Source of the DNA: a virus
Lineage: Duplodnaviria > Caudoviricetes
IMG/VR virus record: IMGVR_UViG_3300034100_000034
Coordinates: 1 to 50,709 of that record
DNA length: 50,709 bases
Direction: 5' to 3' (one strand)
The notes beneath the pieces were generated by a model. That model had not been told where the DNA came from and searched no databases. It saw only the letters and a program-made list of their open reading frames with translations. Below, piece after piece: positions 2,556 to 35,592 of the stretch. Both the position numbers and the translations under genes were made by a program. Position 1 is the stretch's first letter; each line of letters begins with the position of its first letter.

Positions 2556-2574
2556 ATTTATTTTGTCCGCGCGC

Positions 2575-3360
2575 TCAGTCCACGATGTTGTGGGACTTGG
2601 CGACCGAAGCCTTCTCCCGCGCCGGCAACGCCTCGAACGCCGCGCGGGTGATGGTCTTGCCGCCCGCGCCCGCGCCGCCAGACCCGCCCGCGCCGCCGCC
2701 GGAAGCGCCAGCCGGGAACCAATGCGGCGCCGCCTCCTTCATCGTCTCCAGCCATTCGGCCGGGGTGAAGGGCGTCTTGCCGTCCTTGCCCAGCACCGCG
2801 TGGCCGTCGGCGCCCAACTGCACGGCGTCGCCCTTGGAGTCCAGGGAGAACAGCGCACGGGCGCGCAGCAGCGCATCGTCCACGGCGAACGCATGGATGC
2901 CTGCTTTTGCGGCTGCGGCGCGGATGTGGTTGTCGAGAACGCGTCCTTTGAAGGTGTTGGCCACCTCAGTAGCTTCTTTTTCGCGCGCGACCGCTGCGTC
3001 AATGAGCTTTTGCTGGGCGGCGTCGCGCTTTGACATGCGTTTCGAGATCACTTCGTCAACTTTGCCCGCCGCGATCAGCGCGGCCTCTTCCTCGTTGTCG
3101 AACTTGCTGAGCAACGCACGGGTCTTTGCCGGGTCGATGCCCTCGAAATCCTTCAGCGCATCGGCCACAGCCTGCGCACTGGCGGCCTTGGCGGCCTTGA
3201 CGGCGTCGCGCTCTTTGCTGAGGGCGGTCTTGAGGCCGGAAACGTCTTCGATCTCGACTTTGCTTGGGTCGAGCTTAAATTTTGTTCCGTCCTGCACATA
3301 CCAGGCGCGCTGCGCTTCGGGGATGGTGTCGAGGGTGTCTGCTGCTAGGGCGATTGCCAT
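2575..3360 (-). CDS. Capsid scaffolding protein
   Basis: DVSGLKTALSKER coiled coil, APHWFP plus Gly-rich tail; AAGGA RBS before ATG 3360. Confidence 0.8.
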   Translation of the reverse strand: MAIALAADTLDTIPEAQRAWYVQDGTKFKLDPSKVEIEDVSGLKTALSKERDAVKAAKAASAQAVADALKDFEGIDPAKTRALLSKFDNEEEAALIAAGKVDEVISKRMSKRDAAQQKLIDAAVAREKEATEVANTFKGRVLDNHIRAAAAKAGIHAFAVDDALLRARALFSLDSKGDAVQLGADGHAVLGKDGKTPFTPAEWLETMKEAAPHWFPAGASGGGAGGSGGAGAGGKTITRAAFEALPAREKASVAKSHNIVD

Positions 3361-3590
3361 GATTTTTGGTCCTTGCTCTTCACCGGCAATCCCTGCCGGC
3401 ACGGGTTTGGCCGCGTCCTGCGACCGAAATCGTTACCCCATCATCAGGCGGTCTTGACGCCTTGCGGCGCTGATGGGTTGTCCTTCGCACCTTGTCCTGA
3501 TCGCGCCGCTGGTGCAGTGGCGAGAGGTCCGCCCGGCATTTACCCGTGCCGGGTCCCGATTCAGGTTCTCGGGGTGTCTCGGGTGTGTGT

Positions 3591-4580
3591 TCATTTGTGC
3601 CGCGCTCGCAGCTGGTCCAGCGTCAGCGGGCGCCCTGCGCCAGAGGTCAGGTCTGTGAGCGTGATTTTACCGTCGCGCCACATCTGCGCACGCCCCGGCC
3701 CCAGCACCTCGTCCTGAAACGCCTTACCCTGCCGGTCCAGAAAATCGCTGAACGTGGTCTTGCTGCTCACCTGCCCCTCCGACGACGCGCGGGTGCCGGG
3801 GGCCAGGTCGGACAGCGCGGTCTCGGGCACCAGCACGCAGCGGTCGTTGAAGTGCAGGGGAGGATTCAGAAACGCCTCAGCGCCCGCAATCGGGGTGCCG
3901 TCCACCCGCCATTTCATCCCGTCGCGCGCGCCGCATCGGGCGCAGGTGTGCGCGTCAAGCGTGGCCATCCAGCGCAGCGCGGTGATCACGTCCGAGTTGG
4001 CCCGGAACGTGGCCAGCCGCGCGTCATTGGCCACCGTCTGTACCGACGTCTGCACCAGCGCGGCGGCGTTGCGGCGGGTGACGTCGAGTTCGGCGCGCAC
4101 GCGGCGGATGATTTGTTGATTGGTCTCGGCGGCGACCAGTCCCTGGCGCACGGCGGTGGAGAATCGGAAGGCGACATCTGCTGCTTGCCGCGCCCACCAC
4201 GCTTTCTGCGTAGCGCCCATGACGATGGCGTCGCCGGCCAGCGTCCGCATAGCGTCGAAGGCAGGCAATGCTGGCGCGACACCCTCACCCAGCCCAACAC
4301 TCAGAGAGCGCGCTGCGCTGGTGGCGGCAACTTGGCCTAGTTCGGTGGTGGTGTCGATGGCGGTGCGGGCGATATCGTCATAATGCCGCCGGATCAGCGC
4401 GGCGATTTCAGCCATTTGCTGCGAGATGCGCGCTTGGCTCCAGTCGGTGACGCCGGCCGCAACTTGCGCGATCAGCTCCGCCTCCATCCGCTTCAGCAGC
4501 GCCACGATCCGCGCCCGTTCGTGAGCGTCAAAGCGCGCCAGGTCCAGCATCCACAGCAGGGATTTATCGGTTGAGGGCAT
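3591..4580 (-). CDS. Head morphogenesis protein (SPP1 gp7 / Mu gpF family)
   Basis: WMATLDAHTCARCGARDG and PPLHFNDRC motifs. Confidence 0.9.
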   Translation of the reverse strand: MPSTDKSLLWMLDLARFDAHERARIVALLKRMEAELIAQVAAGVTDWSQARISQQMAEIAALIRRHYDDIARTAIDTTTELGQVAATSAARSLSVGLGEGVAPALPAFDAMRTLAGDAIVMGATQKAWWARQAADVAFRFSTAVRQGLVAAETNQQIIRRVRAELDVTRRNAAALVQTSVQTVANDARLATFRANSDVITALRWMATLDAHTCARCGARDGMKWRVDGTPIAGAEAFLNPPLHFNDRCVLVPETALSDLAPGTRASSEGQVSSKTTFSDFLDRQGKAFQDEVLGPGRAQMWRDGKITLTDLTSGAGRPLTLDQLRARHK

Positions 4581-4865
4581 TCACTTCTTCGCGCGCTTTT
4601 GTGGCCACGGGCGCAGCTGGATCTTCTTGACTGGCAGGTTCTCTCCGGCCGCGAAACAGTCCTTGATGAACTTGCGCTCCAAAAAGTTCGGCGCCCCAAA
4701 CGTCACCACCATCTCCTCGCGTGTGTGGCGCGTCTGCGGCCTGTGACGCCAAGTGGCGCGCACCACCAGCCGGGAACCGAGGTACTTGATGGCGGTCTTG
4801 GCGTCGCTCGCCAACAGCGCACCAATAACGGCAGCGAAGGTTGTCTTTCCGATCATGAGTTTCAT
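4581..4865 (-). CDS. Hypothetical basic protein
   Basis: AAAGGAG RBS before MKLMIGK; 94 aa. Confidence 0.65.
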   Translation of the reverse strand: MKLMIGKTTFAAVIGALLASDAKTAIKYLGSRLVVRATWRHRPQTRHTREEMVVTFGAPNFLERKFIKDCFAAGENLPVKKIQLRPWPQKRAKK

Positions 4866-4893
4866 GGCGACAGCTCCTTTGGTTGAAATTCGA

Positions 4894-5154
4894 TCATGCC
4901 ACCCCCGCGCGCGTCTTGTAAGCGCTGGCGAGCTGCGCGTTGATGGCGTGGAAAATGGGCGCAGCCTCTGCGTACTCCATCCCCAGCAGCTCATCGCTAG
5001 TAACGCGCCGCCCGTCCAGCGTCACCGCGCGCTCCGCCAACGCGACAACAAACAGAAACCCCGTGTATTGGGAGGCGATGCAGATGTCGGCCACGGTGAT
5101 CACTTCCACGCGCGCGAACGCTCCGCTGGGCAGGACGCATTCGGTTGGGGCCAT
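4894..5154 (-). CDS. Hypothetical protein
   Basis: 86 aa ORF abutting portal stop codon. Confidence 0.6.
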   Translation of the reverse strand: MAPTECVLPSGAFARVEVITVADICIASQYTGFLFVVALAERAVTLDGRRVTSDELLGMEYAEAAPIFHAINAQLASAYKTRAGVA

Positions 5155-6549
5155 TCAAGCGCCGATCATGTCGATTGGCCCAGCCGACCCGATGCGCTCC
5201 TGCTCCTGTTCGAAGGTCAGATCGCTGTTGATCACCTCGCCCTGCTTCAGATTGTCGAACAGCGTCTCCTGACTGATTGCGCCCGACTGCCATGCCGCGA
5301 CGAGCGCCGCCATCGCCTGCGGAGTCATGTCCTGCGGCAAGAAGTCCCGGCTCAGCTCGTACCGCACCGGCCCGGCCGCGCCGGCCCACTCCGCCAACCA
5401 CCCCAGCGCCCGCGTCAAGCCCTGCGACACCGTTTGTGCCATGCTGGCCAGTACGGCCTCTTCGCCTGCCTGGCGCCGGGCTACAGTCTCAGCGGCTTCG
5501 GCATTGCCACCGGTCTTGCCGCCCTCAAGCATCCGAGCTCCAAGAACAGCCATCTCGCGCTTCTTGTCTTCCAGGTTGGTGCGCAGCGCAGAGAACTCGC
5601 TTTCGACCTCGACGTAGTAGGCCTTGGCGTTGGGGTTGCCCAATGCGTTGGCCGTGGAGCCTCCGATGCTGATGCTGTTGTCGCTGTCCTCCATGCCAGA
5701 GACGAACATGGTGGGCAGGCCGGAGAAGAAGCACCCACGCTCGTAGCTGGTGGCTTGGCGGTAGTGGTGGAAGTTGGTGGTGACCAAGTCCATCAGCGGT
5801 GGCACGTCCACGTCCGGCCCAACGCAGTCCACGCCAATGAACACAAACGGGATGAACGTCATTGGCGCGCCGCCCATCGTCGGCATCACCGTCTCCACCA
5901 GCACCTCATCGCCCTTTTCGTCAATGCGGTACAAGCGCTGGCGATACTTGCCGTCCAGCAGGTCCAGCACCCGGTAGCGCTTCTCGCTCTTGGTGGCGAA
6001 CTCGTCCTCCGTGTCCAGCGCCGCCTCCTCAATCAGCCGCACCTGCGTCAACACCGTCAAACCATTCACCCGTGCCGTGTGCCAGTTGTACACGGAGTCC
6101 GCTTCGTACACACTGATCAGCGGGCGCAACTTCATCGTCAACGCGTCCGCGCGGGTGAGACCGAGGGGTGCGGCGGGGTAGTCCACCAACAGCCCCACGC
6201 GCCCGAGCGTCAACGCCTCCTCCACCACCTCCTGCGCCAGCCCGTTCATCGTCGTGCCTGCGCCGTCCACGTCCTCCATCAGCGGCCCCAGCGCAGCGGG
6301 CGCCTCCAACGTGGGGGGCTTGCGGAACAACATCCCACGCAACCCAACGATGGTACGCCACGTGGCGTTGAACCATGGCGTCATCAGCAGCCGCGCCTTG
6401 TACGCTACGTCGTCCTCGCCCGACAGCCGGGGCAGGTACGTTTCGCGCTCGGCATGCACGGCGTGTTCGCCTTCGGCAGCAGCGGTGCACATGGCCCAAA
6501 GGGGCTTGGCGTCAACAAACGCCTTGTGCTCGGTGCGGAGCTCGCTCAT
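5155..6549 (-). CDS. Portal protein (DUF4055-type)
   Basis: 464 aa, YLPRLSGE, DVDGAG, GRVGLLVDYP, PPLMDL, WQSGAISQETL; follows TerL. Confidence 0.9.
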   Translation of the reverse strand: MSELRTEHKAFVDAKPLWAMCTAAAEGEHAVHAERETYLPRLSGEDDVAYKARLLMTPWFNATWRTIVGLRGMLFRKPPTLEAPAALGPLMEDVDGAGTTMNGLAQEVVEEALTLGRVGLLVDYPAAPLGLTRADALTMKLRPLISVYEADSVYNWHTARVNGLTVLTQVRLIEEAALDTEDEFATKSEKRYRVLDLLDGKYRQRLYRIDEKGDEVLVETVMPTMGGAPMTFIPFVFIGVDCVGPDVDVPPLMDLVTTNFHHYRQATSYERGCFFSGLPTMFVSGMEDSDNSISIGGSTANALGNPNAKAYYVEVESEFSALRTNLEDKKREMAVLGARMLEGGKTGGNAEAAETVARRQAGEEAVLASMAQTVSQGLTRALGWLAEWAGAAGPVRYELSRDFLPQDMTPQAMAALVAAWQSGAISQETLFDNLKQGEVINSDLTFEQEQERIGSAGPIDMIGA

Positions 6550-7871
6550 AGGCCACCCCTAATTGGTATTTGTCGCGTGTCGCGACCGTAAATCGGGAAT
6601 TCATAATCGATGAAGTACCGCACCGCCGTCCCGACGTGTTGGTACTCGCTGTCCTCTTCCAGAAAGGTGCTGCCTTTTTTCAGCTGTCCCGTGGCCAGCG
6701 CCTTGTGCACGTAGGGCGCAGTGTTGGGGTTCACAAACAGCGCGCGGTCCCCGGCGGCGTTGGCGATTTTGGCGCGCACGGCGTTCTGGCCATCCTTGAT
6801 GCTGCGGGTGGAGGGGCGCACCTTGCGGGTGTAGGTCCAGTTGTGGTCGCGCAGTATCGTCTCAATCTCGATGTAGTCGCTGGACTGTCCGTGCTTCTCA
6901 CCGGCCTTGCCAGACGGATCGCCGTACACGACCACGTGGCGGTTCTGGTGCTCCTTGTACCGCTCCACAAACTCCAGCGCCGACTGGCGCGCCACGGCGC
7001 TGGTGAGGATGATCTCTTCCAAGAACAAAATCTCCTCCCCGCGCATCACACCCACAAAGCTGCTCAGCGGAGAGAAGTTGAAGTCGTGGCCCCACAACAG
7101 TTGTTCGTGCGGCTCGATGCGCGCTGCCGTGTGGTTGGCTTGGCTGTAGTCTTCGTAGATGCGGCCGCTGGCGGTCTCGAATGACGCTTCATATTCCTGG
7201 CGGAACTGCTTAAGCGACATACGCTTCTTGGCCGCCTCAATCACGTCCGGGGGCAGGATGTCGGCGCTCTTCCACGTGTACAGCGCCCAGTCCGGATCGC
7301 CCGATGTGCGGGCGTACTCCGCCATGTCAAAGTAGTGGTTCATGCCATCAGGCACCCCCAGCAGCCAACACCACGCACGCTTGTTGGGGTTGCGGGGGTC
7401 AAAGGTGTCGAGCGCGGGGCTGATGTTCTCGGGCCAAGCGTTTTCTTTCACGTCCGCAATCTCGTCCACCACGCCGCCGTCCCAGAACACACCCTCCATC
7501 CGCTGGGGCTGGTCCAGCCCAATGAGGCTGATGCTGCTGCGGTTTGGCAGGCGGATGATCAGGTCCGACTCGCTGGGGGCTGTGGGCATGATGCTGGTGA
7601 AGCTCAACCGTTTCATGTCTTGCCAATAAATCCGTTTCACCTGATCACGGGTGGGCGCCGCGATGAAGTAGTCGCCCGGGGTGCGCAGCGCTTCGCGCGC
7701 GACGTAGCGCTTGGCGCGCTCGGTCTTGCCGCTGCGACGGCCGGCGGGGATGACTTTGAAGCGTGCCGTTTCCGTCACCAGCCGCGTCTGCACCGGGTGC
7801 GCAATGAGCGGGTACCACCGGGCGAGGTCGGTCTCGTACGTGGCGGGGGCTAGACGCTCCTCGACCATCAT
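6546..7871 (-). CDS. terL: Terminase large subunit
   Basis: Walker A AGRRSGKT, Walker B VVDE, nuclease GHDFNFSP and YGDPSG; ATGA overlap with terS stop. Confidence 0.92.
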   Translation of the reverse strand: MMVEERLAPATYETDLARWYPLIAHPVQTRLVTETARFKVIPAGRRSGKTERAKRYVAREALRTPGDYFIAAPTRDQVKRIYWQDMKRLSFTSIMPTAPSESDLIIRLPNRSSISLIGLDQPQRMEGVFWDGGVVDEIADVKENAWPENISPALDTFDPRNPNKRAWCWLLGVPDGMNHYFDMAEYARTSGDPDWALYTWKSADILPPDVIEAAKKRMSLKQFRQEYEASFETASGRIYEDYSQANHTAARIEPHEQLLWGHDFNFSPLSSFVGVMRGEEILFLEEIILTSAVARQSALEFVERYKEHQNRHVVVYGDPSGKAGEKHGQSSDYIEIETILRDHNWTYTRKVRPSTRSIKDGQNAVRAKIANAAGDRALFVNPNTAPYVHKALATGQLKKGSTFLEEDSEYQHVGTAVRYFIDYEFPIYGRDTRQIPIRGGL

Positions 7872-8470
7872 ACCGGCAACCTGTCCGCGATGCCGCGCAG
7901 CTGCGCGGCGAGGTCCTGCATGTCGCCCCCGGCATTCGGGGCGCGGTCGCCGTAGATCTTTGGCAAACACTTCGACAGGAGCCATTTCCGAGAGTCGATC
8001 TGCAAGCGCGCACGCGCCGCCATGTCGCCGTAAACAACTTCCACGCCGCCGTCCGCCTTCTCCGTGATCGTCGTTCCGATGCGACAATCGTCGGACAGGT
8101 CTATGATTTGGTCAGCCATCTTTTCATAGCCAGCCAACCTGGCTTCCGCGTATTGCTTTTTTCTGTCGGGAGTCTCTTTCGCCCACTTCAGAAATTCGCA
8201 CGAGCTGGGCGCACCCTCCACAGCAGCCAGCGATTTGTTCAGCGTCTTGCCACCCTCCAGCTCCGCAATCACCAACGACCACAACGCCGACTGCTCGTCC
8301 GGGGAATAGCGCCTGCCTTTCGGCGAGACGGGCCGCTCGACGTGTTGGATGGCCTTTAGCGCTGCGAGCGCTGATTTTGATGGGGGGTTGCCGCCCGAGG
8401 ACGCGCGGGCCGCGCCCGTGGGCTTCTTGGCTTTCTTGGCTTTCTGCGGGGGAGACTTGTTTGTTGGCAT
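7868..8470 (-). CDS. terS: Terminase small subunit
   Basis: YAEARL...ADQIIDLSD...RARLQIDSRKWLLSK..PKIYGD motif. Confidence 0.88.
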   Translation of the reverse strand: MPTNKSPPQKAKKAKKPTGAARASSGGNPPSKSALAALKAIQHVERPVSPKGRRYSPDEQSALWSLVIAELEGGKTLNKSLAAVEGAPSSCEFLKWAKETPDRKKQYAEARLAGYEKMADQIIDLSDDCRIGTTITEKADGGVEVVYGDMAARARLQIDSRKWLLSKCLPKIYGDRAPNAGGDMQDLAAQLRGIADRLPV

Positions 8471-8639: not shown

Positions 8640-9005
8640 CGCGTCTCGGGTTCGGGCTTGGACGCCGCGCGGGCGTTGAGTTCCTGCAGACGGAAAACCC
8701 GAGAACCCGAGAAACCCGAGATGCCCTATTCTTTGGTTTTACATAATATAAATCAATTTCCCTTAAATCAATTAACTTGTATAGACCGGAGGTGTAACTC
8801 GGGTTCTCGGGTTTCTCGGGTTTTTGGATTTTAAAATCACGGCGCGGCGCGGCGAAAACGCACAGGCCCGAGATTCGACTGCGCGGCACCGTGATTCCAA
8901 CATCCGCGCCCAACGCCCGCGCGGCTCGCCGGCCAGGCCCCAAATTTCACCAAAAACCCGAGATTTCGCAATCTCGGGTTTTCCGGCCCGAGAAACCCGA
9001 GATTT
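8640..9005. repeat. Putative replication origin: ~12 CCCGAGA iterons in both orientations around an AT-rich core
   Basis: CCCGAGA at 8698, 8706, 8715, 8867, 8957, 8987, 8996; (T)CTCGGG at 8644, 8798, 8805, 8814, 8972; AT-rich 8727-8783. Confidence 0.75.
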
Positions 9006-27427: not shown

Positions 27428-28273
27428 ATGGCTACAGCCAACAAACCAACTGAGAAAGTGAATCTCCCCGCAGAAGTGCCGCGCGCCGCGCTGGCGACGC
27501 TGGCCGAGGACGCCTTTGCGGCCGATGCGGGCGCAGGCATGGAGGGCGCCACCAGCGAGTCCTTCGCCATCCCGTTCCTGGGCGTGCTGCAGAAAGGGTC
27601 GCCGCAGGTGGACGAGGCCGACGGCGCATTCGTCGAGGGGGCCAAAGCCGGGCTGTTCTTCGAGAACGTCACGGGCCGGCTCTACGACGGCAAGACCGGA
27701 GTGCTGCTGGTGCCTTGCGCTTACCGGCGCACCTTTTTGCGCTGGGGCGCGCGCGGCGAGCCCGGCGCAGGGTTCAAGGGCGAGATTGCGCCCGAGGAAG
27801 TGGCGCAGATGCGCGCAGAAGGGAAGATCGTGGACCTGGACGGCAGGCTGTTTGTGCCGCTGCCGGACGGCACGGTGAATGACAAAAAGTGCGATAGCGT
27901 CCGCGACACCCGCAACCACTACGTGCTGCTCATCGACGAGCAGACCGGTGCCTGGACCCAGGCGTTGGTCTCGTTGGTTTCGACGCAGATCAAGAAGTCC
28001 AAGATGCTGATGAGCGCGCTGGCCTCCGTGAAGTTGGTGGGCGCGGCCGGGACCTACACCCCGCCCACGTTCGCCAACCTGGTGCGCTGCCACTCCGTGC
28101 CCGAGTCCAATGACAAGGGCACTTGGCACGGGGTGAAGTTCGAGCTGGCCGGCCGAGTGGACCGGACCGAAGTGTACGCGGCCGCAAAGGCTTTCCACGC
28201 CTCCGTGGCCAAGGGCGTCGTCGAGGCCAAGTACGAAGACGCGCCGAGCGCACCCGCAGACGACCGGTTCTGA
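27428..28273 (+). CDS. Probable single-stranded DNA-binding protein
   Basis: AIPFLGVLQKGSPQV, STQIKKSK, NDKGTW, acidic C-terminus ending in F. Confidence 0.65.
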   Translation: MATANKPTEKVNLPAEVPRAALATLAEDAFAADAGAGMEGATSESFAIPFLGVLQKGSPQVDEADGAFVEGAKAGLFFENVTGRLYDGKTGVLLVPCAYRRTFLRWGARGEPGAGFKGEIAPEEVAQMRAEGKIVDLDGRLFVPLPDGTVNDKKCDSVRDTRNHYVLLIDEQTGAWTQALVSLVSTQIKKSKMLMSALASVKLVGAAGTYTPPTFANLVRCHSVPESNDKGTWHGVKFELAGRVDRTEVYAAAKAFHASVAKGVVEAKYEDAPSAPADDRF

Positions 28274-28281
28274 CCGAGAAC

Positions 28282-28315
28282 AAGGGCTGCGCAAAGCTGC
28301 TGCGCAGCCCTTTAT
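28282..28315 (+). terminator. Probable intrinsic terminator
   Basis: AAGGGCTGCGCA...TGCGCAGCCCTT stem then T/A-rich tail. Confidence 0.6.
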
Positions 28316-28345
28316 AGCGAAGATACTTTAGAAAGGACACCAAAA

Positions 28346-28534
28346 ATGAACCAATCACCCGCCAATCCCAAGGCGATGTTGCTCTCGGACAGCGTCTGCC
28401 TTGAAGCAGCGCCGGCCCGGCCGCGACAAGACAACGCCTTCCTGCGCCCCGTCTACGTCCCGGTCCGCAACGCCCCCGCCCGCCCCGGCGCGGAGGACGC
28501 GCTGCGCATCCCAAGTCGAGGGGTGGCCGCATGA
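28346..28534 (+). CDS. Hypothetical protein
   Basis: AAAGGA RBS; RPGAEDALRIPSRG. Confidence 0.6.
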   Translation: MNQSPANPKAMLLSDSVCLEAAPARPRQDNAFLRPVYVPVRNAPARPGAEDALRIPSRGVAA

Positions 28535-28623
28535 GCATTGGAGCTTACACACTAATGCTAATTGTTGCCGTGTCTTTCTTAATCGGCTGGTGGGCTCGCT
28601 GCGCCCCGTCCTGCATGATTTAA
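28531..28623 (+). CDS. 30-aa membrane peptide
   Basis: MSIGAYTLMLIVAVSFLIGWWARCAPSCMI; ATGA overlap. Confidence 0.45.
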   Translation: MSIGAYTLMLIVAVSFLIGWWARCAPSCMI

Positions 28624-28651
28624 GGAGCCGACTTTTAAAGAGAGGTAGAGG

Positions 28652-28888
28652 ATGGGGATCAGCAAACTTGGAGTGGCCGCCAGGGCCGCCTACTACGCAG
28701 AGCGGCGAGAGCACGTCAACCAGTGGGATTCGGTAGCGGGCGCGGTTGTTGCGGCAGACCGCGAGAGAATTGCCGAGGCTGCCCGACTTGTTATCCGTGA
28801 CTACCAGGCCAGCGATGATGAGGATTTGGATGAACTTGTGCAGCGCGCTGTGCGCGATCTGTGCCGACGGCTGGACGTCGAACTGTGA
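28652..28888 (+). CDS. Hypothetical protein
   Basis: GAGG RBS; stops just before attC-like site 1. Confidence 0.6.
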   Translation: MGISKLGVAARAAYYAERREHVNQWDSVAGAVVAADRERIAEAARLVIRDYQASDDEDLDELVQRAVRDLCRRLDVEL

Positions 28889-28889
28889 C

Positions 28890-28954
28890 GCCGAACGCTG
28901 AATGAAGGGGCCGCGCGAAAAGCCGCGCGGCCCCGCTTACATGCCGGGTTGGGC
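28890..28954 (-). mobile_element. attC: attC-type site 1
   Basis: Minus: GCCCAAC ccggc ATGTAAGC ... CCTTCAT tcagc GTTCGGC with GC-rich central stem. Confidence 0.8.
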
Positions 28955-28974
28955 GGCATTTTTTGGAGAAGGCG

Positions 28975-29376
28975 ATGGAACACGGATATTACTGGCTGCA
29001 CCTGAAAGACCAAGAACCGGAGGTTGTTGAGATTGACGGCAACTCGATGCATCGATGTGGCAGTGACGTGGGCTGCTATCTTGAGGACGGGAAATGGCAC
29101 GAAGGACTTTTTGCCGAAACTATGGATGTAGTTTCTATCATCGGGCCGCTGACGCCTACCGATGGCAGGATGTTTGTCACTGAGTATCTGCGCCTTGGCG
29201 ATGACGGGCCGGAGATTGTCCGGCACGCATTGGCTGAATGGCCGGAGTGGGCGGAGGCATTGCGCGAGATGATGACGCCCAACGCAGAAATAGCCGGCTC
29301 CGCGCTTGCCCAGCCTGGGAGACCCGACATGAACCAGCAATCCGAACTCAGCCGGGACGTGTTCGATCCGGGTTGA
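28975..29376 (+). CDS. Hypothetical cassette-like gene
   Basis: GGAG RBS; GYYW..PEVV; C-terminus reads through attC site 2. Confidence 0.65.
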   Translation: MEHGYYWLHLKDQEPEVVEIDGNSMHRCGSDVGCYLEDGKWHEGLFAETMDVVSIIGPLTPTDGRMFVTEYLRLGDDGPEIVRHALAEWPEWAEALREMMTPNAEIAGSALAQPGRPDMNQQSELSRDVFDPG

Positions 29377-29390
29377 GCGTAGGGTTGTGC
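29277..29390 (-). mobile_element. attC: attC-type site 2
   Basis: Minus: GCACAAC cctac GCTCAACC ... GGCTATT tctgc GTTGGGC. Confidence 0.7.
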
Positions 29391-29410
29391 GGCATTTTTG
29401 GGATAAAGCG

Positions 29411-29578
29411 ATGAAAGCACGATTTGAAGCGGCACTGTTGCGACTGGCTGCGTGGGTACTGGATCGCAATGTAAAACGGTCAATGGTCGTTTCACGCCGC
29501 GACAATAACTGGCTGTTTGAGGCGGAACGCGAATTGAGCGCCATCGCAGGCAGGATTGAAGCCGGGTATGACGCATAA
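29411..29578 (+). CDS. Hypothetical cassette-like gene
   Basis: Stop TAA lies in the GCATAAC box of attC site 3. Confidence 0.6.
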   Translation: MKARFEAALLRLAAWVLDRNVKRSMVVSRRDNNWLFEAERELSAIAGRIEAGYDA

Positions 29579-29660
29579 CGTCTTGTTGAACGGGGCGCCG
29601 TGACAAGACACCCGGAGCGCGCTGCTGCCGTAGCGCCCCCGTTCGAACAAGGGGTTAGCC
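29573..29660 (-). mobile_element. attC: attC-type site 3
   Basis: Minus: GGCTAAC ccctt GTTCGAAC ... GTTCAAC aagac GTTATGC; extra C in L''. Confidence 0.88.
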
Positions 29661-29697
29661 GGCCCCCACGAAAACCGGCACAACCTTGGAGCGCAAC

Positions 29698-29943
29698 ATG
29701 CGTGCAATGAGTGAAGCGATTGAAGGCGCCCGGGACTTCCGGGGGATGATGGACAAGATCGAGGCCGACACGGCGAGGCAGGCGAACATGCTGCGGATGC
29801 AGGCGGCCATGCAGGGCGACACGCCCGACGAGCGACGCTACAGCGTGCTGCCCGACCGCCAGCCGGGCGAGAACCGCGCTGCGCACCGTGCCCGCCTGAA
29901 GCGCGAGCGCCGCGAAGCCAAGACCGGCAAGGTGACGGCATGA
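29698..29943 (+). CDS. Hypothetical protein
   Basis: GGAG RBS; basic C-terminus. Confidence 0.6.
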   Translation: MRAMSEAIEGARDFRGMMDKIEADTARQANMLRMQAAMQGDTPDERRYSVLPDRQPGENRAAHRARLKRERREAKTGKVTA

Positions 29944-30200
29944 CGCCCAGCGCCCGCCTGAGCGTGGACCTGCAGGACATTGCCGCGCGCCTGCACACGA
30001 TGCTGGAACAGTCGGCCGGCGAGCCCTGCGCGTTTGTGCTGGTGTGCCAGGCTGACGGCGTGGCGCAGTACGTGAGCAATGCCGACCGCAAGGACGGGCG
30101 CAAGCTGATCGAAAGCCTGTTGGCACGCTGGAAGGCTGGGCGCGCGGACATCCCCGCACACTACAACCCGGACCTTCGACCGCCACAGGCGGGGAGCTGA
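29940..30200 (+). CDS. Hypothetical protein
   Basis: FVLV...QYVSNADR; ATGA overlap. Confidence 0.7.
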   Translation: MTPSARLSVDLQDIAARLHTMLEQSAGEPCAFVLVCQADGVAQYVSNADRKDGRKLIESLLARWKAGRADIPAHYNPDLRPPQAGS

Positions 30201-30248
30201 GAAGCTACAGCCGCTTGTGTACACCGATCAATCAACTGGAGAGAAGAA

Positions 30249-30437
30249 ATGAACGAAGCCATGAAGATTTACCCGCAATGCGGATTGTCCGAATCTCACT
30301 TCGGAAACCGCGACAACGCGCGCAATGCCAGCGCAACCAAGAACGGTCCTGGTCGTCATCATGTAAACGGTGATGGCCCACCACCTACGGCAGCCGATGC
30401 CATCACCACCATGAAATCTGAACTGGAGAAATCATGA
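30249..30437 (+). CDS. Hypothetical protein
   Basis: GGAG RBS; ends LEKS. Confidence 0.55.
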   Translation: MNEAMKIYPQCGLSESHFGNRDNARNASATKNGPGRHHVNGDGPPPTAADAITTMKSELEKS

Positions 30438-30598
30438 AACGAGCACTACAAACTACTGGACTGACAATTATGATTGCAGTTGCTGTGGCAGCGGTCCAGC
30501 ACGCAGCTTGGAGCAGCGACTACAAGATAGGGGCCACGCTAGCCGTCCTTTTGTTTGGCGCGTTTTTTGTGTTCCTCTCTAGCCTGGAGAAATCATGA
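30434..30598 (+). CDS. 54-aa two-TM membrane protein
   Basis: MKRALQTTGLTIMIAVAVAAV...ATLAVLLFGAFFVFLSSLEKS; ATGA overlaps. Confidence 0.6.
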   Translation: MKRALQTTGLTIMIAVAVAAVQHAAWSSDYKIGATLAVLLFGAFFVFLSSLEKS

Positions 30599-30792
30599 AA
30601 TACATCATCACTCAAGAGCAGGTTGAAAGTCTCGGACTTGATACCGTAGCATTGCTTGCAGAACTCAAACCCATTGAGCCGCTGACCCAGGATAAGATTC
30701 TCGACATGGCTGAGGGGTGCACGTTGCAGTTCCATGATTTACTGGCCTTTGGAAGATCAGTCGAAGCCGCCATCATTGGAGAGAAATCATGA
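30595..30792 (+). CDS. Hypothetical protein
   Basis: PLTQDKI...FGRSVEAA; ends GEKS. Confidence 0.65.
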   Translation: MKYIITQEQVESLGLDTVALLAELKPIEPLTQDKILDMAEGCTLQFHDLLAFGRSVEAAIIGEKS

Positions 30793-31433
30793 GCACACCT
30801 GATCTGCTGGCGCTGCCAGATAGTTTTGCAGACAAGAGTTCAGCTACTCCGCTGGAAAAAGCATTCCGGTTCCTCAATGCTCTGAGAACCCCAGATGCCA
30901 AATATTTCTTTGGTGACGGCTATCCTAAAAACGATGCTATAAAAAAAGATGCCAACGCTACTTCCGCTGTCATCGCCGCACTGGAAGCCGCCAAAGCGCA
31001 GCCAGTGGAGCCGCAAGATGGATCACTTCCGGCTGGATTTCACCCTGATTTGAACTGTTCCAAAGAATGGGACATGCCCATAATCATGACCACTCCAGAC
31101 GCTATTGAAGAACTGATAAAAAAGACTATGGCAGCGCAGCCAGTAGTGCCGCAGGGATGGAAGATGGTCCCGATTGAGCCGACGAAGGCTATGTTGAAAG
31201 CGCCACCTAATGCATGGGAGGCAGATGCAAAGATTACCTATAAAGCCATGCTCGCCGCCTCTCCCGCGCCCCTTGTGGTGCCGGTAGAGTTTCCGATAGC
31301 GGCCTGGGGAAGGTCATTTGTGAGTACGGGCGAAATCGGAGATTGTATCTCTCCAACAGAACATGAACGTCTTGAGGGAGACTACACCATTGCATTGGTG
31401 CGCCTCAGCGATGCACAAGGAGTGAAGAAATGA
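30789..31433 (+). CDS. Mosaic Ead/Eaa-like hypothetical protein
   Basis: VPQGWKMVPIEPTKAM...YKAMLAASP motif. Confidence 0.65.
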   Translation: MSTPDLLALPDSFADKSSATPLEKAFRFLNALRTPDAKYFFGDGYPKNDAIKKDANATSAVIAALEAAKAQPVEPQDGSLPAGFHPDLNCSKEWDMPIIMTTPDAIEELIKKTMAAQPVVPQGWKMVPIEPTKAMLKAPPNAWEADAKITYKAMLAASPAPLVVPVEFPIAAWGRSFVSTGEIGDCISPTEHERLEGDYTIALVRLSDAQGVKK

Positions 31434-31708
31434 CCGAACAAGACAAGGCCGTGGCGCTGGCTGAGAAGCACGGCGTTTTTGCTGACACCGCATTTCTCTG
31501 GAAAGCAGAACTCGCCACCATGCTTGCCGACTACAAACAGCAAGTCACCGAAGCCATACAGAAAGACTGCCGGACGTGCGTGAATCTTGGCTGGTGTAAC
31601 ACCTGTGGGCCGATGCCGCCGAATTCTGATCTGGCGACAACGCGAATCTGCACCAAACACAACCAATGGACTCCGATGGAGTTCAAACAACTGACAAGGA
31701 GCGAGTGA
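31430..31708 (+). CDS. Cys-rich hypothetical protein
   Basis: AGGAG RBS; CxxC. Confidence 0.6.
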   Translation: MTEQDKAVALAEKHGVFADTAFLWKAELATMLADYKQQVTEAIQKDCRTCVNLGWCNTCGPMPPNSDLATTRICTKHNQWTPMEFKQLTRSE

Positions 31709-32023
31709 ATGACCTACTCACCCGTTGCAGAGTGGGCTGACAAGCGCCCCCGTCTGCGCTGGATGGCTGTGTCCTGTGTATTGGCTGTCATCGTTATTGG
31801 CGCATATGGACTTGTCGGAGCACTCGACGAAATCCAGGAGCGAAAGGACGCGGAAGCCAATCTCACGCAGGCCGAGCGAGATTCGCAAGAACAGCGGCGC
31901 AAGCTCCAGGCGGTGCAGGACATGAGCGTTGGTGAAAACGGCGAGTGCAAATGGGCTGACAAAACGACCATCAAATGCGTCAATAAAAAGGGGCGCGAGG
32001 TTTTCAGAAAGGAAGTGCTATGA
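31709..32023 (+). CDS. Membrane-anchored hypothetical protein
   Basis: One TM segment then coiled coil. Confidence 0.6.
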   Translation: MTYSPVAEWADKRPRLRWMAVSCVLAVIVIGAYGLVGALDEIQERKDAEANLTQAERDSQEQRRKLQAVQDMSVGENGECKWADKTTIKCVNKKGREVFRKEVL

Positions 32024-32063
32024 AATTAGGAAACGTCGCACGGCAGGCTACGGCAGAAAATAG

Positions 32064-32318
32064 GTGGGCACAATGACTACTTGGTACAAAGCTGGTTTTG
32101 GAAAAATAGAAGAAGTTGAAGTAGAGCGAGAAACAGAGCTGTTTGTCGTCTTCAAAAACGGGAGAAGGTCAGCCAAGAATTCTGATTGGGTCTGGTATGC
32201 CCAGGATCGCGAACAAGCTAAACAGGTGATGATTGCAAACTACCAGCGTCAACTTGATTTGGCAAAACATGATGTCATCGTGAATGAAAAGAGGCTTGAA
32301 GAAGCCAGGAGCGCATAG
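32064..32318 (+). CDS. Hypothetical protein
   Basis: IEEVEVERETE..V...RRSAK motif. Confidence 0.65.
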   Translation: MGTMTTWYKAGFGKIEEVEVERETELFVVFKNGRRSAKNSDWVWYAQDREQAKQVMIANYQRQLDLAKHDVIVNEKRLEEARSA

Positions 32319-32380
32319 GAGAACATATGGGACATGCATCGTGCCTCAGGGCATGGCGGTGGCAGAGGTGCAGGCGTGAT

Positions 32381-32434
32381 TTGTAACGCGCCGCTGATCG
32401 GACCGAAGGGTCCGCATCGGGCGGATGGTTATCG
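32381..32434 (-). mobile_element. attC: attC-type site 4 (short)
   Basis: Minus: CGATAAC catcc GCCCGATG cggacccttcggtcc GATCAGC ggcgc GTTACAA. Confidence 0.7.
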
Positions 32435-32455
32435 GGCAGATTTAACAGGAGAGAA

Positions 32456-32689
32456 ATGATGACACCAGCGCAAATCAAAGCCAAGGTCGGGCAGACAGTC
32501 ACAGAAGCCGAGATGGCCGACATGCTGAAAACCAACCCAATCGGGACGGCTGACGGAGACATGCGTGTGCGCAGTGGCGTGCTTGAGTTTTCGTTCGGTC
32601 CGGGTGGCGTCAAGCTGATAGCCGCCGAGGTACGCAAACCGCTGCCAGATAACGCAAAATTAAGCTGGCGCGAAGCGATCCGCTCTTGA
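32456..32689 (+). CDS. Hypothetical cassette-like gene
   Basis: AGGAG RBS; C-terminus PDNAKLSWREAIRS is encoded by attC site 5. Confidence 0.65.
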   Translation: MMTPAQIKAKVGQTVTEAEMADMLKTNPIGTADGDMRVRSGVLEFSFGPGGVKLIAAEVRKPLPDNAKLSWREAIRS

Positions 32690-32703
32690 ATGATGGGTTA
32701 TGC
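32647..32703 (-). mobile_element. attC: attC-type site 5 (57 bp)
   Basis: Minus: GCATAAC ccatc ATTCAAGA gcggatcgcttcgcgcca GCTTAAT tttgc GTTATCT. Confidence 0.88.
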
Positions 32704-32730
32704 CGGTGACGGCCTAAGCAAAGGGAAAAG

Positions 32731-32967
32731 ATGGTATACGAAAAAATGGAGCAAGGCAGCGGAAGCCCGAAGTTTTGCTGGCACTGCGGAAAGCAACTGC
32801 GACGCGCACCGGGTAAAGGAATGGGGTTGTTCTACTTTCGCACGCTGGTCGATCCGCTGGGTGCAGAGCATCGTGTACATGGAGACTGCGCACAGAGTGC
32901 CATAGGCGATAGCGTGAGGCTGAAGGTGCCCAGCCCAAAAATCAGCAGCGGCACGTCCGCTGCATGA
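32731..32967 (+). CDS. Zn-ribbon hypothetical cassette-like gene
   Basis: CWHC...HGDC. Confidence 0.6.
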   Translation: MVYEKMEQGSGSPKFCWHCGKQLRRAPGKGMGLFYFRTLVDPLGAEHRVHGDCAQSAIGDSVRLKVPSPKISSGTSAA

Positions 32968-32977
32968 GACGTTAGAA
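32928..32977 (-). mobile_element. Degenerate attC-type site 6
   Basis: Minus: TTCTAAC gtctc ATGCAGCG gacgtgccgctgctgat ttttgg GCTGGGC. Confidence 0.5.
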
Positions 32978-32986
32978 AGGAGAATC

Positions 32987-33058
32987 ATGATTGAATTTCA
33001 AGACTTCCCAAAACTTCCCATGGCGCGGCTTGCCTTTGCTGGTTTGGGCGCGAAGTGA
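32987..33058 (+). pseudogene. Short remnant ORF, possibly the N-terminus of a phage RNA ligase
   Basis: AAAGGAG RBS; MIEFQDFPK(LP)MARL then runs into a half attC. Confidence 0.4.
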
Positions 33059-33083
33059 TCCGCTCTCGAATGAAAGGTTTGGT
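33046..33083 (-). mobile_element. Half attC site 7 (partial copy of site 5)
   Basis: GGCGCGAAGTGATCCGCTCTCGAATGAAAGGTT versus GGCGCGAAGCGATCCGCTCTTGAATGATGGGTT. Confidence 0.7.
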
Positions 33084-33117
33084 GACTGTTGAACGAAGCA
33101 ACGAAAGGATGAGCGCG

Positions 33118-33348
33118 ATGGACGACAAAGAAGCGAAGCAACTTGCAGAAATTGCTGCGACTTGCGTGTTTGCCTGCTTAGACGGACGGGCAACAGTAAC
33201 AATCTCGACGCGCGGGAAGAGGCCATTGGGGTTTCCGCGCGGCGAACTGTTAAGCGTTGGAACCGACGGCTCGAACAACTATGCCTTCCATCCAGTAAAG
33301 GTGCTGGCGTGGCTTCATGCCCGCACGAGCAAGACGCTCAACGCTTGA
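33118..33348 (+). CDS. Hypothetical cassette-like gene
   Basis: AAAGGA RBS; GFPRGELL; ends inside attC site 8. Confidence 0.65.
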   Translation: MDDKEAKQLAEIAATCVFACLDGRATVTISTRGKRPLGFPRGELLSVGTDGSNNYAFHPVKVLAWLHARTSKTLNA

Positions 33349-33430
33349 GCTAAGCGGGCGCTGCCCGCAAGGAGATTCGATGACTACAGAAGCCGGCCGG
33401 CAGCGCCCCGACTTGAGCGACGGGTTAGGC
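33336..33430 (-). mobile_element. attC: attC-type site 8
   Basis: Minus: GCCTAAC ccgtc GCTCAAGT ... GCTTAGC tcaagc GTTGAGC. Confidence 0.9.
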
Positions 33431-33748
33431 GCTGGTTCCGACCTCTACCTCCGCGCGCTGGCGTTCAATGACGACGACCCCGAGCGCAAGGCGCTGATGG
33501 CGAAGGTGTGGTGCGGTACGCCGTGGATGGTGGATGCCTACACCGGCTCGCACGACTCGGCCCGCAGGCACGAACTGATGGAGTGGTGCCGCGAACAGTT
33601 CGGGCCGGAAGCGTGGCCGATACACGGGCACGCCGGGCAATGGCACTCAGGCGGCGCGACCGTAGACGGCTGGACGTGGATGGGGTTCGCAACCGAAGAC
33701 CAGATGCATCGATTCGTGGAACGCTGGCCGGCGCCTAACGCAGGATAG
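33380..33748 (+). CDS. Trp-rich hypothetical cassette-like gene; RBS and ATG lie inside attC site 8
   Basis: AAGGAG-attcg-ATG in hairpin loop; WCREQFG...F.TE....F..RW; ends PNAG. Confidence 0.7.
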   Translation: MTTEAGRQRPDLSDGLGAGSDLYLRALAFNDDDPERKALMAKVWCGTPWMVDAYTGSHDSARRHELMEWCREQFGPEAWPIHGHAGQWHSGGATVDGWTWMGFATEDQMHRFVERWPAPNAG

Positions 33749-33790
33749 ACCGCGAAATATCCTGTCCGGAATATCAGACGGAATAACACC
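33733..33790 (-). mobile_element. Terminal core site GTTAGGC without a partner box (attI-like or decayed attC)
   Basis: Minus: ...GGTCTAT cctgc GTTAGGC; upstream short repeats GTTATTCCG/GATATTCCG/GATATTTCG. Confidence 0.45.
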
Positions 33791-33890
33791 ATGAACTGCT
33801 CAGAACACAAGCACCGCACGTGCCCCGGAACACACTGCCAATCCGGGTGCCACTTCAACGAGGCAGATACCCAACCGCCGTATGAGGAGC

Positions 33891-34127
33891 ATGACAATGA
33901 ACAATCTTTCTCTGATCGACTTGGCCATGGAAGTGGCCGCATGGACTCTATTGTCCGTCCTACTGCTGGTCTTGCTGTACCTGCTGGTCCGAGAGGCTCT
34001 GTTTCATTTTGGGCTTTCGGACGCGGCAAGAAAGACGTTTGATGCAGAGCAAGCAAGGATCGACGTCGAGAAGATGCTTAGGGACGCTGGAGAAGTCGGA
34101 GACTGGCGCCGGAATGGGGGTGCGTGA
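33891..34127 (+). CDS. Membrane protein
   Basis: GAGGAG RBS; strong TM segment. Confidence 0.55.
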   Translation: MTMNNLSLIDLAMEVAAWTLLSVLLLVLLYLLVREALFHFGLSDAARKTFDAEQARIDVEKMLRDAGEVGDWRRNGGA

Positions 34128-34645
34128 TGTTGTCCTGCGAATTTGATGGAGATGGCGGGGACGTTGCGTGGTGGTATGACTCCGCCGGCAAGATCGGACC
34201 CCTGACAACAAAACGCACGCGCAAATGCTGCTCATGTAGGGGCCGCATTGCAGTTGGCGACGACTGCATGAAGTTCCGACGGTGGCGCACTCCGAATGAG
34301 GATAGCGTCGCGTATCGCATCCATGGCGAGGAAGAGAGTCTTGCGGCATGGTATCTGTGCGACCGCTGCGCCGGCCTATATGAGTCACTGAGTAGCCTTG
34401 GATTTTGCAACCTGCTAGGGCAGGATTTGCGCGATGTGTGCCGCGAGTATGCACAAATGCAGCGCGATGCCGGAGTGTTTCGCGGGCAGATGGTGTTCAA
34501 CGCGGCACCTGCACAAGTCACTTTCGGTAGCATCCATCCAGTCGATTCGCTGAAGCAATTCATTCCCGACATGAACCCTGAAGCCGAAAACAAGCGCGAT
34601 CTTGAGCAGCCCGTCTATCACCCGGAGGAAGGGACTGACAAATGA
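34124..34645 (+). CDS. Cys-rich (Zn-binding) hypothetical protein
   Basis: CCSC and CDRC motifs. Confidence 0.7.
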   Translation: MMLSCEFDGDGGDVAWWYDSAGKIGPLTTKRTRKCCSCRGRIAVGDDCMKFRRWRTPNEDSVAYRIHGEEESLAAWYLCDRCAGLYESLSSLGFCNLLGQDLRDVCREYAQMQRDAGVFRGQMVFNAAPAQVTFGSIHPVDSLKQFIPDMNPEAENKRDLEQPVYHPEEGTDK

Positions 34646-35133
34646 AACATCTTCTGATTGCTCTGATTTGGTTTCCCGTTGCGGTGTTCGCAAACTGTCT
34701 GCGTGTCGATGTGTTGCCTGTTGAAGTTGTTGAAGACACATCGCGCTCGCATGCTGAAATATCAAGAATGACAGACGGTGTTGGGACATTTGGCGCTGTC
34801 ATCACATCGAGCATCGTGACGTTTGAATGGTGCGTGCTTACGGTCGGATACCGTCCGATGATGATGTTTATCGCTCGCGAACTGCTGGCTGATCGTTGCG
34901 CGCTCAGACACGTTCGAGGCCATGAGATGCGCCACGTCGAAATATACCGAGAAGGCTTGGTCGGAATTGAAGACAGAATCGTTCTGCGTGTTACCAATGG
35001 TGAAACTCCTATCGAAGCCGCAAATGCGGAGATTGCGGCGATTCGCGCCCGTCAAGAGGCGCATGACAGCCCGGAAGAATACGCGCTGAACAGATTCAAG
35101 TGCAACGGCCGCATATTGGCTGCGGTCAAATGA
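34642..35133 (+). CDS. Secreted zinc-peptidase-like protein (DUF922-like)
   Basis: Signal peptide; HEMRH (HEXXH). Confidence 0.6.
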   Translation: MKHLLIALIWFPVAVFANCLRVDVLPVEVVEDTSRSHAEISRMTDGVGTFGAVITSSIVTFEWCVLTVGYRPMMMFIARELLADRCALRHVRGHEMRHVEIYREGLVGIEDRIVLRVTNGETPIEAANAEIAAIRARQEAHDSPEEYALNRFKCNGRILAAVK

Positions 35134-35144
35134 TCAGCACCAGG

Positions 35145-35345
35145 CTACCAACTGAACCCGAATAGACCAACGATTGCGTGCCACGCGCGCATCACAGTGA
35201 AATAGGCGTCCTTGCGCTCTTTGTCGATCTCTGCCTGGATTGCCCGGTGGCCCCCACCAATCGAGAAATTTGCCTGCTGAGGCGCCGCGCAGGACGCCGT
35301 CAGGATCGCGGCAAGAATGATAGTGATGATGTTCTTACGCACCAT
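35145..35345 (-). CDS. Small lipoprotein (spanin candidate)
   Basis: Lipobox LTASC after hydrophobic leader; end of lysis cassette. Confidence 0.55.
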   Translation of the reverse strand: MVRKNIITIILAAILTASCAAPQQANFSIGGGHRAIQAEIDKERKDAYFTVMRAWHAIVGLFGFSW

Positions 35346-35592
35346 TTTCCCAGCACCGTTTGGCGTCTTCGCCGGCCTTCTTCGCCAATGCACGGACGGC
35401 CGCTTCGACTCCGGCTTGATACGCCCGTTGCATTTCTTCTTCGTATTTCTCTTTCGTGAGGAGAGCGCACCCGCCTTGGGAGTCGCATGCCGCGCGCACT
35501 TCATCGCTGAGAGAGATTCCTGATTCTTGCGCCTGGGCGGCTGCAAGAAATGACAATGTCACCATGCCCACAAGTTTCGCCGCTATTTGCAT
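35335..35592 (-). CDS. Signal-peptide/TM protein (lysis-associated?)
   Basis: N-terminal hydrophobic segment, helical C-terminus; GGAG RBS. Confidence 0.55.
   Translation of the reverse strand: MQIAAKLVGMVTLSFLAAAQAQESGISLSDEVRAACDSQGGCALLTKEKYEEEMQRAYQAGVEAAVRALAKKAGEDAKRCWENGA

Follow-up and report, generated by a model that had tools for sequence, protein, structure and literature searches.

The stretch of DNA analysed here, hereafter the window, is the complete virus record IMGVR_UViG_3300034100_000034 of IMG/VR (50,709 bp; CheckV completeness 100%), and its element of interest is an array of hairpins and small genes at positions 28890-33739. Comparison of its sequence with that of related loci indicates that the array was acquired and belongs, without an integrase of its own, to a phage family of integron cassettes with reversed polarity. 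In the window the head, portal, large terminase, tape measure and tail genes (the major head protein among them) lie on the - strand, and a long early/replication operon on the + strand encodes a DNA polymerase, a helicase and a primase-like protein. This operon stops at ~35.1 kb, opposite a - strand module with an endolysin, and the array lies within its final 5 kb. The phage is a siphovirus of virulent appearance from sediment.

All sites and genes of the array are given here as read on the + strand, which is the bottom strand of the attC sites. The array opens with site 1 (28890-28954), which combines an R' box GCCGAAC, 5-nt spacers, a bulged A and an R'' box GTTGGGC with a total stem of 16 bp, matches the architectural rule set described below, and is homologous to the attC site that precedes the same gene in loci L076 and L077. 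The gene in question (28975-29376; 133 aa) belongs to what we call the MEHGYYWL family, present in loci L075-L083, with four homologues that have the first ~60 residues in common. Its 3' end enters the next R' box, and this end, GCCCAA followed by C, matches the R'' box of site 1 at 7/7 positions. Site 2 (29277-29390) is a degenerate attC that has retained its R' box GCCCAAC and R'' box GTTGTGC; its L boxes are unpaired and the rule set is not satisfied. The second cassette gene (29411-29578; 55 aa) matches phrog_23588 (E 6.4e-13) and has its TAA stop within the R' box of site 3 (29573-29660), a rule-set match with R' box GCATAAC, a bulged G, R'' box GTTAGCC and a total stem of 14 bp.

Site 3 is followed by a site-free multi-gene stretch (29698-32379) made up of two GC3-rich open reading frames (ORFs; 29698-30200), a lower-GC block of eight ORFs (30249-32318) and a tiny ORF. 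The eight ORFs of the block (GC 0.52-0.54) are tightly packed with overlapping stops and starts and enclose no attC site, and the 12-nt stop/start overlap GAGAAATCATGA is repeated at three of the junctions. Its appearance is that of an independent insertion into a cassette. Between the R'' box of site 3 and the R' box of site 4, 1/4 variable positions agree, which suggests later insertion by another route.

The second group of sites starts with site 4 (32381-32434; R' box TTGTAAC, R'' box GTTATCG, total stem 12 bp), which has one G-T pair in its L box, is matched only on the + strand with wobble allowed, and folds at -27.4 kcal/mol as the + strand versus -20.5 as the - strand. The gene behind it (32456-32689; 77 aa) has no family match and ends within site 5 (32647-32703; R' box AGATAAC, bulged G, R'' box GTTATGC), a rule-set match with a short stem (total 7 bp). 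Next come a 78-aa cassette gene (32731-32967) for which a weak Pfam zinc-finger match below cut-off is the only one, and a half-site (33046-33083) that copies a site-5-type 3' arm together with an R''-like box, GTTTGGT, and has no 5' arm. A 79-aa cassette gene with no family match (33109-33348) has its stop in a spacer of site 8 (33336-33430; R' box GCTCAAC, bulged G, R'' box GTTAGGC), a rule-set match with a total stem of 17 bp whose loop includes AAGGAG and the ATG of the next gene. The first ~17 codons of this last cassette gene (33380-33748; 122 aa) are attC sequence; its homologue in L018 (82% identity, residues 19-119) lacks the hairpin and has a start of its own, and blastn matches to the gene occur in two cultured phages. 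The array is closed by a lone R' box, GCCTAAC (33733-33739), which complements the R'' box of site 8 exactly and is the sole GCCTAAC on the + strand of the window. Lone boxes terminate the arrays of L077 and L105 as well.

Generic hairpin scans (AAC...GTT pairs plus folding) gave hundreds of matches in this GC-rich genome and no contrast with shuffles; architecture rules were therefore used instead. The rule set follows the canonical attC layout: a 7-nt box ending in AAC, a spacer of 5-6 nt, 3 bp, a single bulged nucleotide confined to one arm, 3 or more further bp, a 5-nt spacer and a box starting with GTT. The positive control came from phage P1 record MH445380, one of those named by Qi et al. 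(2023): 30 kb that include the class 1 array estX-psp-aadA2-cmlA1-aadA1-qacH as well as a dfrA cassette. In it the rules recovered 7/7 genuine class 1 attC sites in the right orientation together with one extra weak match. Applied to phage TJE1, they returned three co-oriented sites at the start of the record, beside orf1-orf3. A cluster of attC sites without integrase (CALIN) comprising 3 attC sites is reported for this phage by Qi et al. (2023, PMC9892861) and may correspond to the three rule-set sites.

In the window the strict rules returned no site with the + strand as top strand and four sites with the - strand as top strand (1, 3, 5 and 8), and allowing one G-T pair on the folded + strand added site 4. 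When the total stem was required to reach 12 bp or more, three sites remained, whereas 100 dinucleotide shuffles, with both strands searched, averaged 0.04 (maximum 1); looser rule sets showed no enrichment over shuffles (6 vs 3.85 and 24 vs 16.0). On the 3' arm of the + strand the L box has its bulged base after 3 bp, as does the aadA1 bottom strand, and this base is a G in four of the five sites and an A in site 1. AAC and GTT are found in all six window sites, and RYYY describes the four variable R-box positions loosely, both here and in the class 1 controls. The original prediction had listed six complete hairpins and three partial sites, with sites 3, 5 and 8 as the best fits. All six hairpins fold at the coordinates given above, and five of them (1, 3, 4, 5 and 8) have the full attC architecture, but site 2 retains its R boxes only. 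Two of the partial sites correspond to the half-site 33046-33083 and the lone R' box 33733-33739, and the third could not be placed. The strongest sites here were 1, 8 and 3, which agrees with the earlier ranking of 3 and 8 but not with that of site 5, the site with the shortest stem.

Metagenome contigs that contain the same kind of array were reached through homologues of the gene that follows site 1, and 15 sites from the window, L076, L077, L082 and L105 were aligned with MAFFT, with the structure drawn by hand. AAC and GTT were invariant in all 15 aligned phage sites. Under the drawn structure 80.4% of the cells pair, both sides change in 12/16 pairs, and changes in the L boxes are compensatory. 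None of 500 shuffles reached the observed values, and slid controls gave at most 50.2%. RNAalifold predicted no pairs on the same 15-site alignment.

We then used a covariance model, R1, trained on phage sites alone in their + strand orientation. R1 matched the class 1 attC sites of aadA2, aadA1, qacH, psp and cmlA1 on the bottom strand at 53.7-29.7 bits and that of estX weakly, so that 5/7 class 1 attC sites were found at E < 1e-3. In the window the model found the untrained sites 8 (42.9 and 28.7 bits), 3 (25.9 bits, E 9e-4) and 2; the last scored 31.2 bits in one search and 15.5 bits, over 29339-29392 only, with filters off. Sites 1, 5 and 4, at 70, 50.6 and 33.3 bits, belong to the training set, and nothing else of significance was found in the window except the reverse of the palindromic site 1; the half-site had no R1 match. 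A search of the window against Rfam gave no match. Beyond phages, R1 had matches in 70/151 genomes sampled from the order of G005, a Rhodoferax metagenome-assembled genome (MAG), and in three Burkholderiales genomes (G040, G086 and G094) its arrays lie beside a bona fide intI (481-492 bits), on the bottom strand by integron geometry. The matches in 70 of the 151 genomes and one MAG bin may be taken as a weak hint of a host in the Burkholderiales.

The R' box at an integron junction is a hybrid, and the R'' box of a cassette matches the R' half-box at the far end of the same cassette. Of the 22 adjacent pairs in five phage arrays, 13 have an R'' box that agrees with the R' box of the next site throughout the four variable positions. 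The same match was seen in 2/22 comparisons within one site, in 1/16 in the wrong direction and in 7.4% of 594 unlinked pairs, and 0 of 100,000 permutations reached 13. The class 1 control showed the chain match at 4/5 junctions, in the canonical direction. Within the window the matches from site 1 to 2 and from site 8 to 9 (the closing box) are 7/7, and that from site 4 to 5 is 6/7.

Direct comparison of arrays revealed the unit that is exchanged. L076 and L077 have 269 nt in common at 100% identity, extending from the CTAAC of one R' box through the attC site, the leader and the gene to the next R' box plus two bases, and their flanks are unrelated on both sides of this shared cassette. Site 1 of the window and the gene at 28975-29376 constitute a homologous cassette in a third context, in which the attC site can be aligned and the R''-leader segment is conserved. 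Gene gain or loss with breakpoints at the AAC core had been proposed as a check, and the same cassette does occur in different arrays (L076 and L077) with both breakpoints at R' boxes. As far as sequence comparison can establish, real cassette exchange has shaped the phage arrays. By three independent lines, namely selected structure, the reciprocal model test and the cassette signature, the window sites are judged to be genuine integron-type attC sites; the attC character first proposed for them is likewise borne out by their architecture, by covariation and by the reciprocal matches of the covariance model to class 1 and intI-adjacent bacterial sites.

The window was also described beforehand as having no integrase, and this holds: TIGR02249, PF00589, PF00239 and PF01797 gave no match in the complete 50.7-kb record at E <= 0.1 or tighter, so that recombinases of the tyrosine, serine and Y1 types are all undetected. 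A brief look for attI-like similarity at 33733-33800 revealed none. With five full sites and remnants in 4.9 kb and no integrase in 50.7 kb, the array is a CALIN by definition. Integron integrases are encoded by viral contigs of the same family. A single IntI protein as query found no viral relative, and a search with an alignment of four IntI proteins gave 328 stretches, of which the best 80, on which the following analyses are based, are 53-67% identical to the query alignment. R1 matched 38 of these 80 IntI-bearing viral loci, and 121 of the 123 matches lie on the intI strand, nearly all upstream of intI. In L170 (intI at 7001-7939) the integron sits between a RecE-like exonuclease and a tail protein. 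The cassette genes on the intI strand (2503-6587) suggest a cargo directed against restriction, as they encode two DNA methyltransferases (E 6.5e-71), a Mom-like DNA modification protein and a PAPS-reductase-like protein. Many of the IntI-bearing viral contigs (L133-L212) display the motif AAAC GCGACA, sometimes twice, ~40-60 nt before the intI match; this motif could be the attI core or could be located within the 5' end of intI.

The L119 contig falls in the bin of a Rhodoferax MAG in which an IntI contig is also present; L119 contains four reversed sites, the endolysin and phrog_6637 pair of the window, and RepA_C/ParA. L120, from Candidatus Competibacter denitrificans (G004; C63 ~71000-73500), is a chromosomal attC cluster of ordinary polarity between cobalamin-synthesis genes, in which one cassette ORF matches Pfam Tox-MPTase3; the G004 genome has no IntI above cut-off. 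Just past the lone R' box of the window lies a 173-aa ORF (34124-34645) whose homologues in IntI-bearing viral contigs are 42-43% identical. One of them, at 5803-6114 of L143, lies between two R1 matches and is therefore a cassette there, so the window array may once have extended further to the right.

The orientation of the genes relative to their sites sets the array apart from ordinary cassettes. The strand on which R1 matches, which is the bottom strand of genuine cassettes, is the coding strand in the window. Cassette ORFs with homologues lie on the + strand (29411-29578 with phrog_23588, the MEHGYYWL family, and the last gene with its L018 relative), and 0/10 antisense ORFs have a Pfam or PHROG match. 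These three observations support the inversion of the sites relative to their genes that the original prediction had asserted. GC content by codon position fits coding on the + strand and is flat for a 461-codon antisense frame. In related arrays the ORFs on the bottom strand include an N6_N4 DNA methylase (E 8e-40), phrog_9799, DUF551, phrog_1008 and phrog_31522. The canonical cassette layout, with the ORF on the attC top strand and attC downstream, was not found in the window.

Polarity was scored more widely with a strand classifier that combines ORF coverage and a Shine-Dalgarno motif in each interval, leaving out loci with fewer than 3 sites, intervals shorter than 120 or longer than 1600 nt, and L151, a copy of L148. 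The bottom strand was assigned in 20/24 intervals of integrase-less phage arrays (2 top, 2 ties) and in 56/72 intervals of IntI-bearing viral contigs (7 top, 9 ties). Bacterial arrays of the same attC type gave the top strand in 15/16 and 11/12 intervals (26/28).

The attC site precedes the gene and so serves as its leader, with a distance of ~20-37 nt from R'' to ATG. Two leader types, GTTGGGCGGCATTTT..GGAG..ATG and GTTAGCCGGC..CCACGA..ACCGGC, recur directly 3' of R'' before unrelated genes in different phages, at 28948-28975, 29384-29411 and 29654-29698 in the window, at 2975-3001 and 1618-1656 in L077, and at 5425-5377 (- strand) in L119. Such recurrent leaders may belong to the mobile site rather than to the gene. 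A site in L119 that resembles site 8 also has a loop with a ribosome site and an ATG. The 16-nt leader motif was found in 23 stretches of viral contigs, and L105 is the only one of them with an array.

Comparison with relatives shows where in the genome this arrangement was placed. In L001-L004, whose helicases are 67-68% identical to that of the window, synteny ends at 28283 and nothing is held in common past this point; the array therefore sits in a hypervariable accessory end of the operon. The stretch is present in 9 sediment-metagenome runs, and no RNA dataset is listed among the sequencing runs that contain it. Contigs of runs X5 and X7 match the window at 31433-31470 (the start of ORF 31430-31708) alone and then continue into unrelated sequence, which identifies these positions, at the level of sequence, as a small segment common to other genomes in the same sediments. 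A search of genome contigs with the major capsid protein gave 55 loci in many phyla (best identity 61%) and names no host, and BLAST against cultured phages gave short matches to single genes only. Elsewhere in the window, at 8692-8826, every hairpin scan recovered a large imperfect inverted repeat of CCCGAGAA-type repeats flanking an AT-rich core; this structure looks like an origin or a divergent control region.

We regard it as probable that the array is an integrase-less (CALIN) set of integron-type cassettes of reversed polarity, built at the AA|C core by IntI supplied in trans with the + strand as substrate, and partly decayed since. The attC bottom strand, the one that IntI folds and cuts, is here the coding strand, and the mobile unit consists of the C, the spacer, the hairpin, the R'' box, a short leader, the gene and RYYYAA. 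Each gene has its attC site as 5' leader, which in the case of site 8 also provides the ribosome site and start codon. Comparison of arrays shows that such units are exchanged site-specifically at the AA|C core of R' boxes, and the array was built in this way. The enzyme would probably be an integron integrase acting in trans, from the host or from a phage integron of this family resident in the same cell; reversed arrays of viral contigs are accompanied by an intI of their own, and the helper could therefore be a phage integron as well as the host. The + strand would be folded while single-stranded during phage replication, and forks moving with transcription would make the coding strand the lagging-strand template. 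Entry of the first cassette, perhaps via a non-classical site, may have left the lone R' box. Expression would come from the phage early transcript and not from a Pc promoter. Decay has since affected site 2 and the half-site, and other recombination has interrupted the array at the block 30249-32318.

Several observations weigh against this reading. R1 finds 0/3 of the rule-set sites of TJE1, and therefore models one attC subfamily and not attC in general; it also finds nothing on the IntI contig of the Rhodoferax MAG. Three complete relatives with helicases 67-68% identical to that of the window contain no attC site when searched with R1, and the array has therefore been acquired and is no constant character of the clade. 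Over 27500-35500, contigs of four other sediment runs have an identical array, free of joints and of omitted bases, at a depth of ~3-7, at which low-depth contigs cannot reveal rare excision. The longest-ORF and ORF-coverage measures do not separate the strands in GC-rich phage arrays, the rule set and the strand classifier are both ad hoc, and some boxes of the R-box table were placed by eye (site 2, L077 f, the lone boxes and three L082 sites). Signs of decay are evident in the degenerate site 2, the one half-site and the mismatch of the site 3 R'' box to the site 4 R' box; the decayed sites and this mismatch at 3/4 positions mean that part of the array may be inert.

Extending that decay to the whole array leads to an alternative in which IntI-type assembly took place in an ancestor, perhaps an IntI-bearing phage, and the array is now an inert fossil whose hairpins persist as intercistronic RNA or DNA structures. 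We hold this to be possible, though unlikely. The lost L-box pairing of site 2, the half-site 33046-33083 and the site 3/site 4 mismatch speak for it, and the genome without integrase and the lack of alternative junctions in the contigs of the four other sediment runs agree with it; the run data, however, are low-depth contigs that are blind to rare events. An inert array also accords poorly with the complete architecture of five sites, with the compensatory changes across the family and with the perfect chain complementarity kept from 1 to 2 and from 8 to 9. Furthermore, the 100% identical cassette of two other arrays demonstrates recent exchange in this cassette pool.

A second alternative would assign the array to a different enzyme, a phage-type or Xer-like tyrosine recombinase of related phages, with attC likeness reflecting a sister system. 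This proposal draws on L105, where a lone R' box (reverse strand 4529-4800) ends the array and is followed immediately by an excisionase-like ORF and a tyrosine recombinase, not of the IntI type, whose score with the IntI model is 31 bits (cut-off 265). The recombinase, paired as it is with an excisionase, resembles a usual lysogeny integrase, and R1 matches both class 1 attC sites and arrays directly beside bona fide bacterial intI, as well as the arrays upstream of viral intI with their strong strand bias (38/80 loci, 121/123 matches). We consequently consider a different recombinase improbable. Most improbable of all is that the hairpins are RNA or transcription signals only (RNase III-type sites, weak terminators or mRNA stabilisers) with attC likeness by chance or convergence: in its favour, the transcribed strand carries the sites, which separate small genes of a single operon, folding of site 4 is more stable for the + strand, site 1 has a small hairpin of terminator type plus a T run behind it, and attC sites probably contain weak terminators according to Qi et al. 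(2023, PMC9892861), but terminator-like sites are not enriched (11 vs 8.6 in shuffles), the one after site 1 alone adjoins a site, Rfam has no match, and such signals leave unexplained the invariant AAC/GTT, the fixed bulge position, the R''(k)-R'(k+1) complementarity, the R'-box swap breakpoints and the R1 matches adjacent to intI. The hairpins may have an additional RNA role beside recombination.

The reading of the array as reversed-polarity cassettes mobilised in trans leads to a wider proposal, which we advance with less assurance and think somewhat favoured by the evidence at hand. Phages would keep their own pool of reversed-polarity cassettes, in which attC is a portable 5' leader, at times with the ribosome site and start codon of its gene, moved with genes read from the early transcript between unrelated phages by phage or host IntI, and which holds DNA-modification and probably anti-defence genes in related arrays; the window phage would be an integrase-less user of this pool. 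Genes in it face the wrong way for the bacterial Pc promoter, and in function the pool would therefore stand apart from its bacterial counterpart. Integrons are familiar as devices for gene capture in bacteria, and CALINs of phages have been described only of late and in few cases. The evidence presented here exceeds site prediction, since it includes junction signatures and an identical cassette in two arrays, and a polarity the reverse of the bacterial one is found alike in integrase-less arrays and in IntI-encoding viral contigs. If the proposal is true, phages run a parallel integron economy for accessory early genes. It makes testable the action of IntI on replicating phage DNA, the strand used, and the doubling of attC as a translation leader. 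Note that surveys of viral contigs based on attC would call ORFs on the wrong strand if bacterial polarity were assumed.

Phage CALINs are the closest known counterparts of the array. For 10,705 phage genomes, Qi et al. (2023, PMC9892861) report 17 CALINs and 3 complete integrons, as well as recombination by IntI1 of 5/6 tested phage attC sites, cassettes of ordinary direction in phages TJE1 and PH101, and a single phage with 'divergent directions'. Like the window, the CALINs described there are arrays of attC sites and small ORFs in phages without IntI, virulent ones included. A further point in common is the presence of DNA methyltransferases among the cassettes of arrays related to the window (L077 and L170). 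Polarity differs: rule-set sites of TJE1 have the ORF strand as top strand, whereas the genes of the window, L076, L077, L082, L105 and L119 are encoded on the bottom strand. No account of reversed cassette polarity in phages was found in the portions of the literature searched, and the supplementary tables of PMC9892861, which cover all 17 CALINs, could contain cases.

Compared with classical integrons, the likeness resides in the sites and the difference in their setting. Class 1 integrons and those of the Burkholderiales G040, G086 and G094 have the same R and L boxes, unpaired spacer and bulge 3 bp into L'' as the window. Sites of the window type are close to aadA-type attC (up to 53.7 bits with R1), and R-box chain complementarity is as in classical integrons. 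Classical integrons, however, possess intI and attI, and the window has no intI and no recognisable attI; their genes lie on the top strand, whereas those of the window lie on the bottom strand, with an attC site that comes before the gene and may hold its start codon. Insertion at non-classical sites offers a further parallel. IntI inserts isolated cassettes at such sites in bacterial genomes, termed attG, according to Loot et al. (bioRxiv 10.1101/2022.09.11.507474). An event of this kind would be a possible route of entry into a genome without attI, and the lone R' box 33733-33739 may represent the kind of junction to be expected. The attG events described there concern isolated cassettes in bacterial genomes, in contrast to the multi-cassette array of a phage seen here. 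Finally, Loot et al. (2017, PMC5371416) report that attC bottom strands on the lagging-strand template fold and recombine more, and that 25/30 sedentary chromosomal integrons have the bottom strand on the leading-strand template. The bottom strand of the window array is the coding strand and, if replication runs with transcription, would be the lagging-strand template, the configuration that favours folding and recombination in that study.

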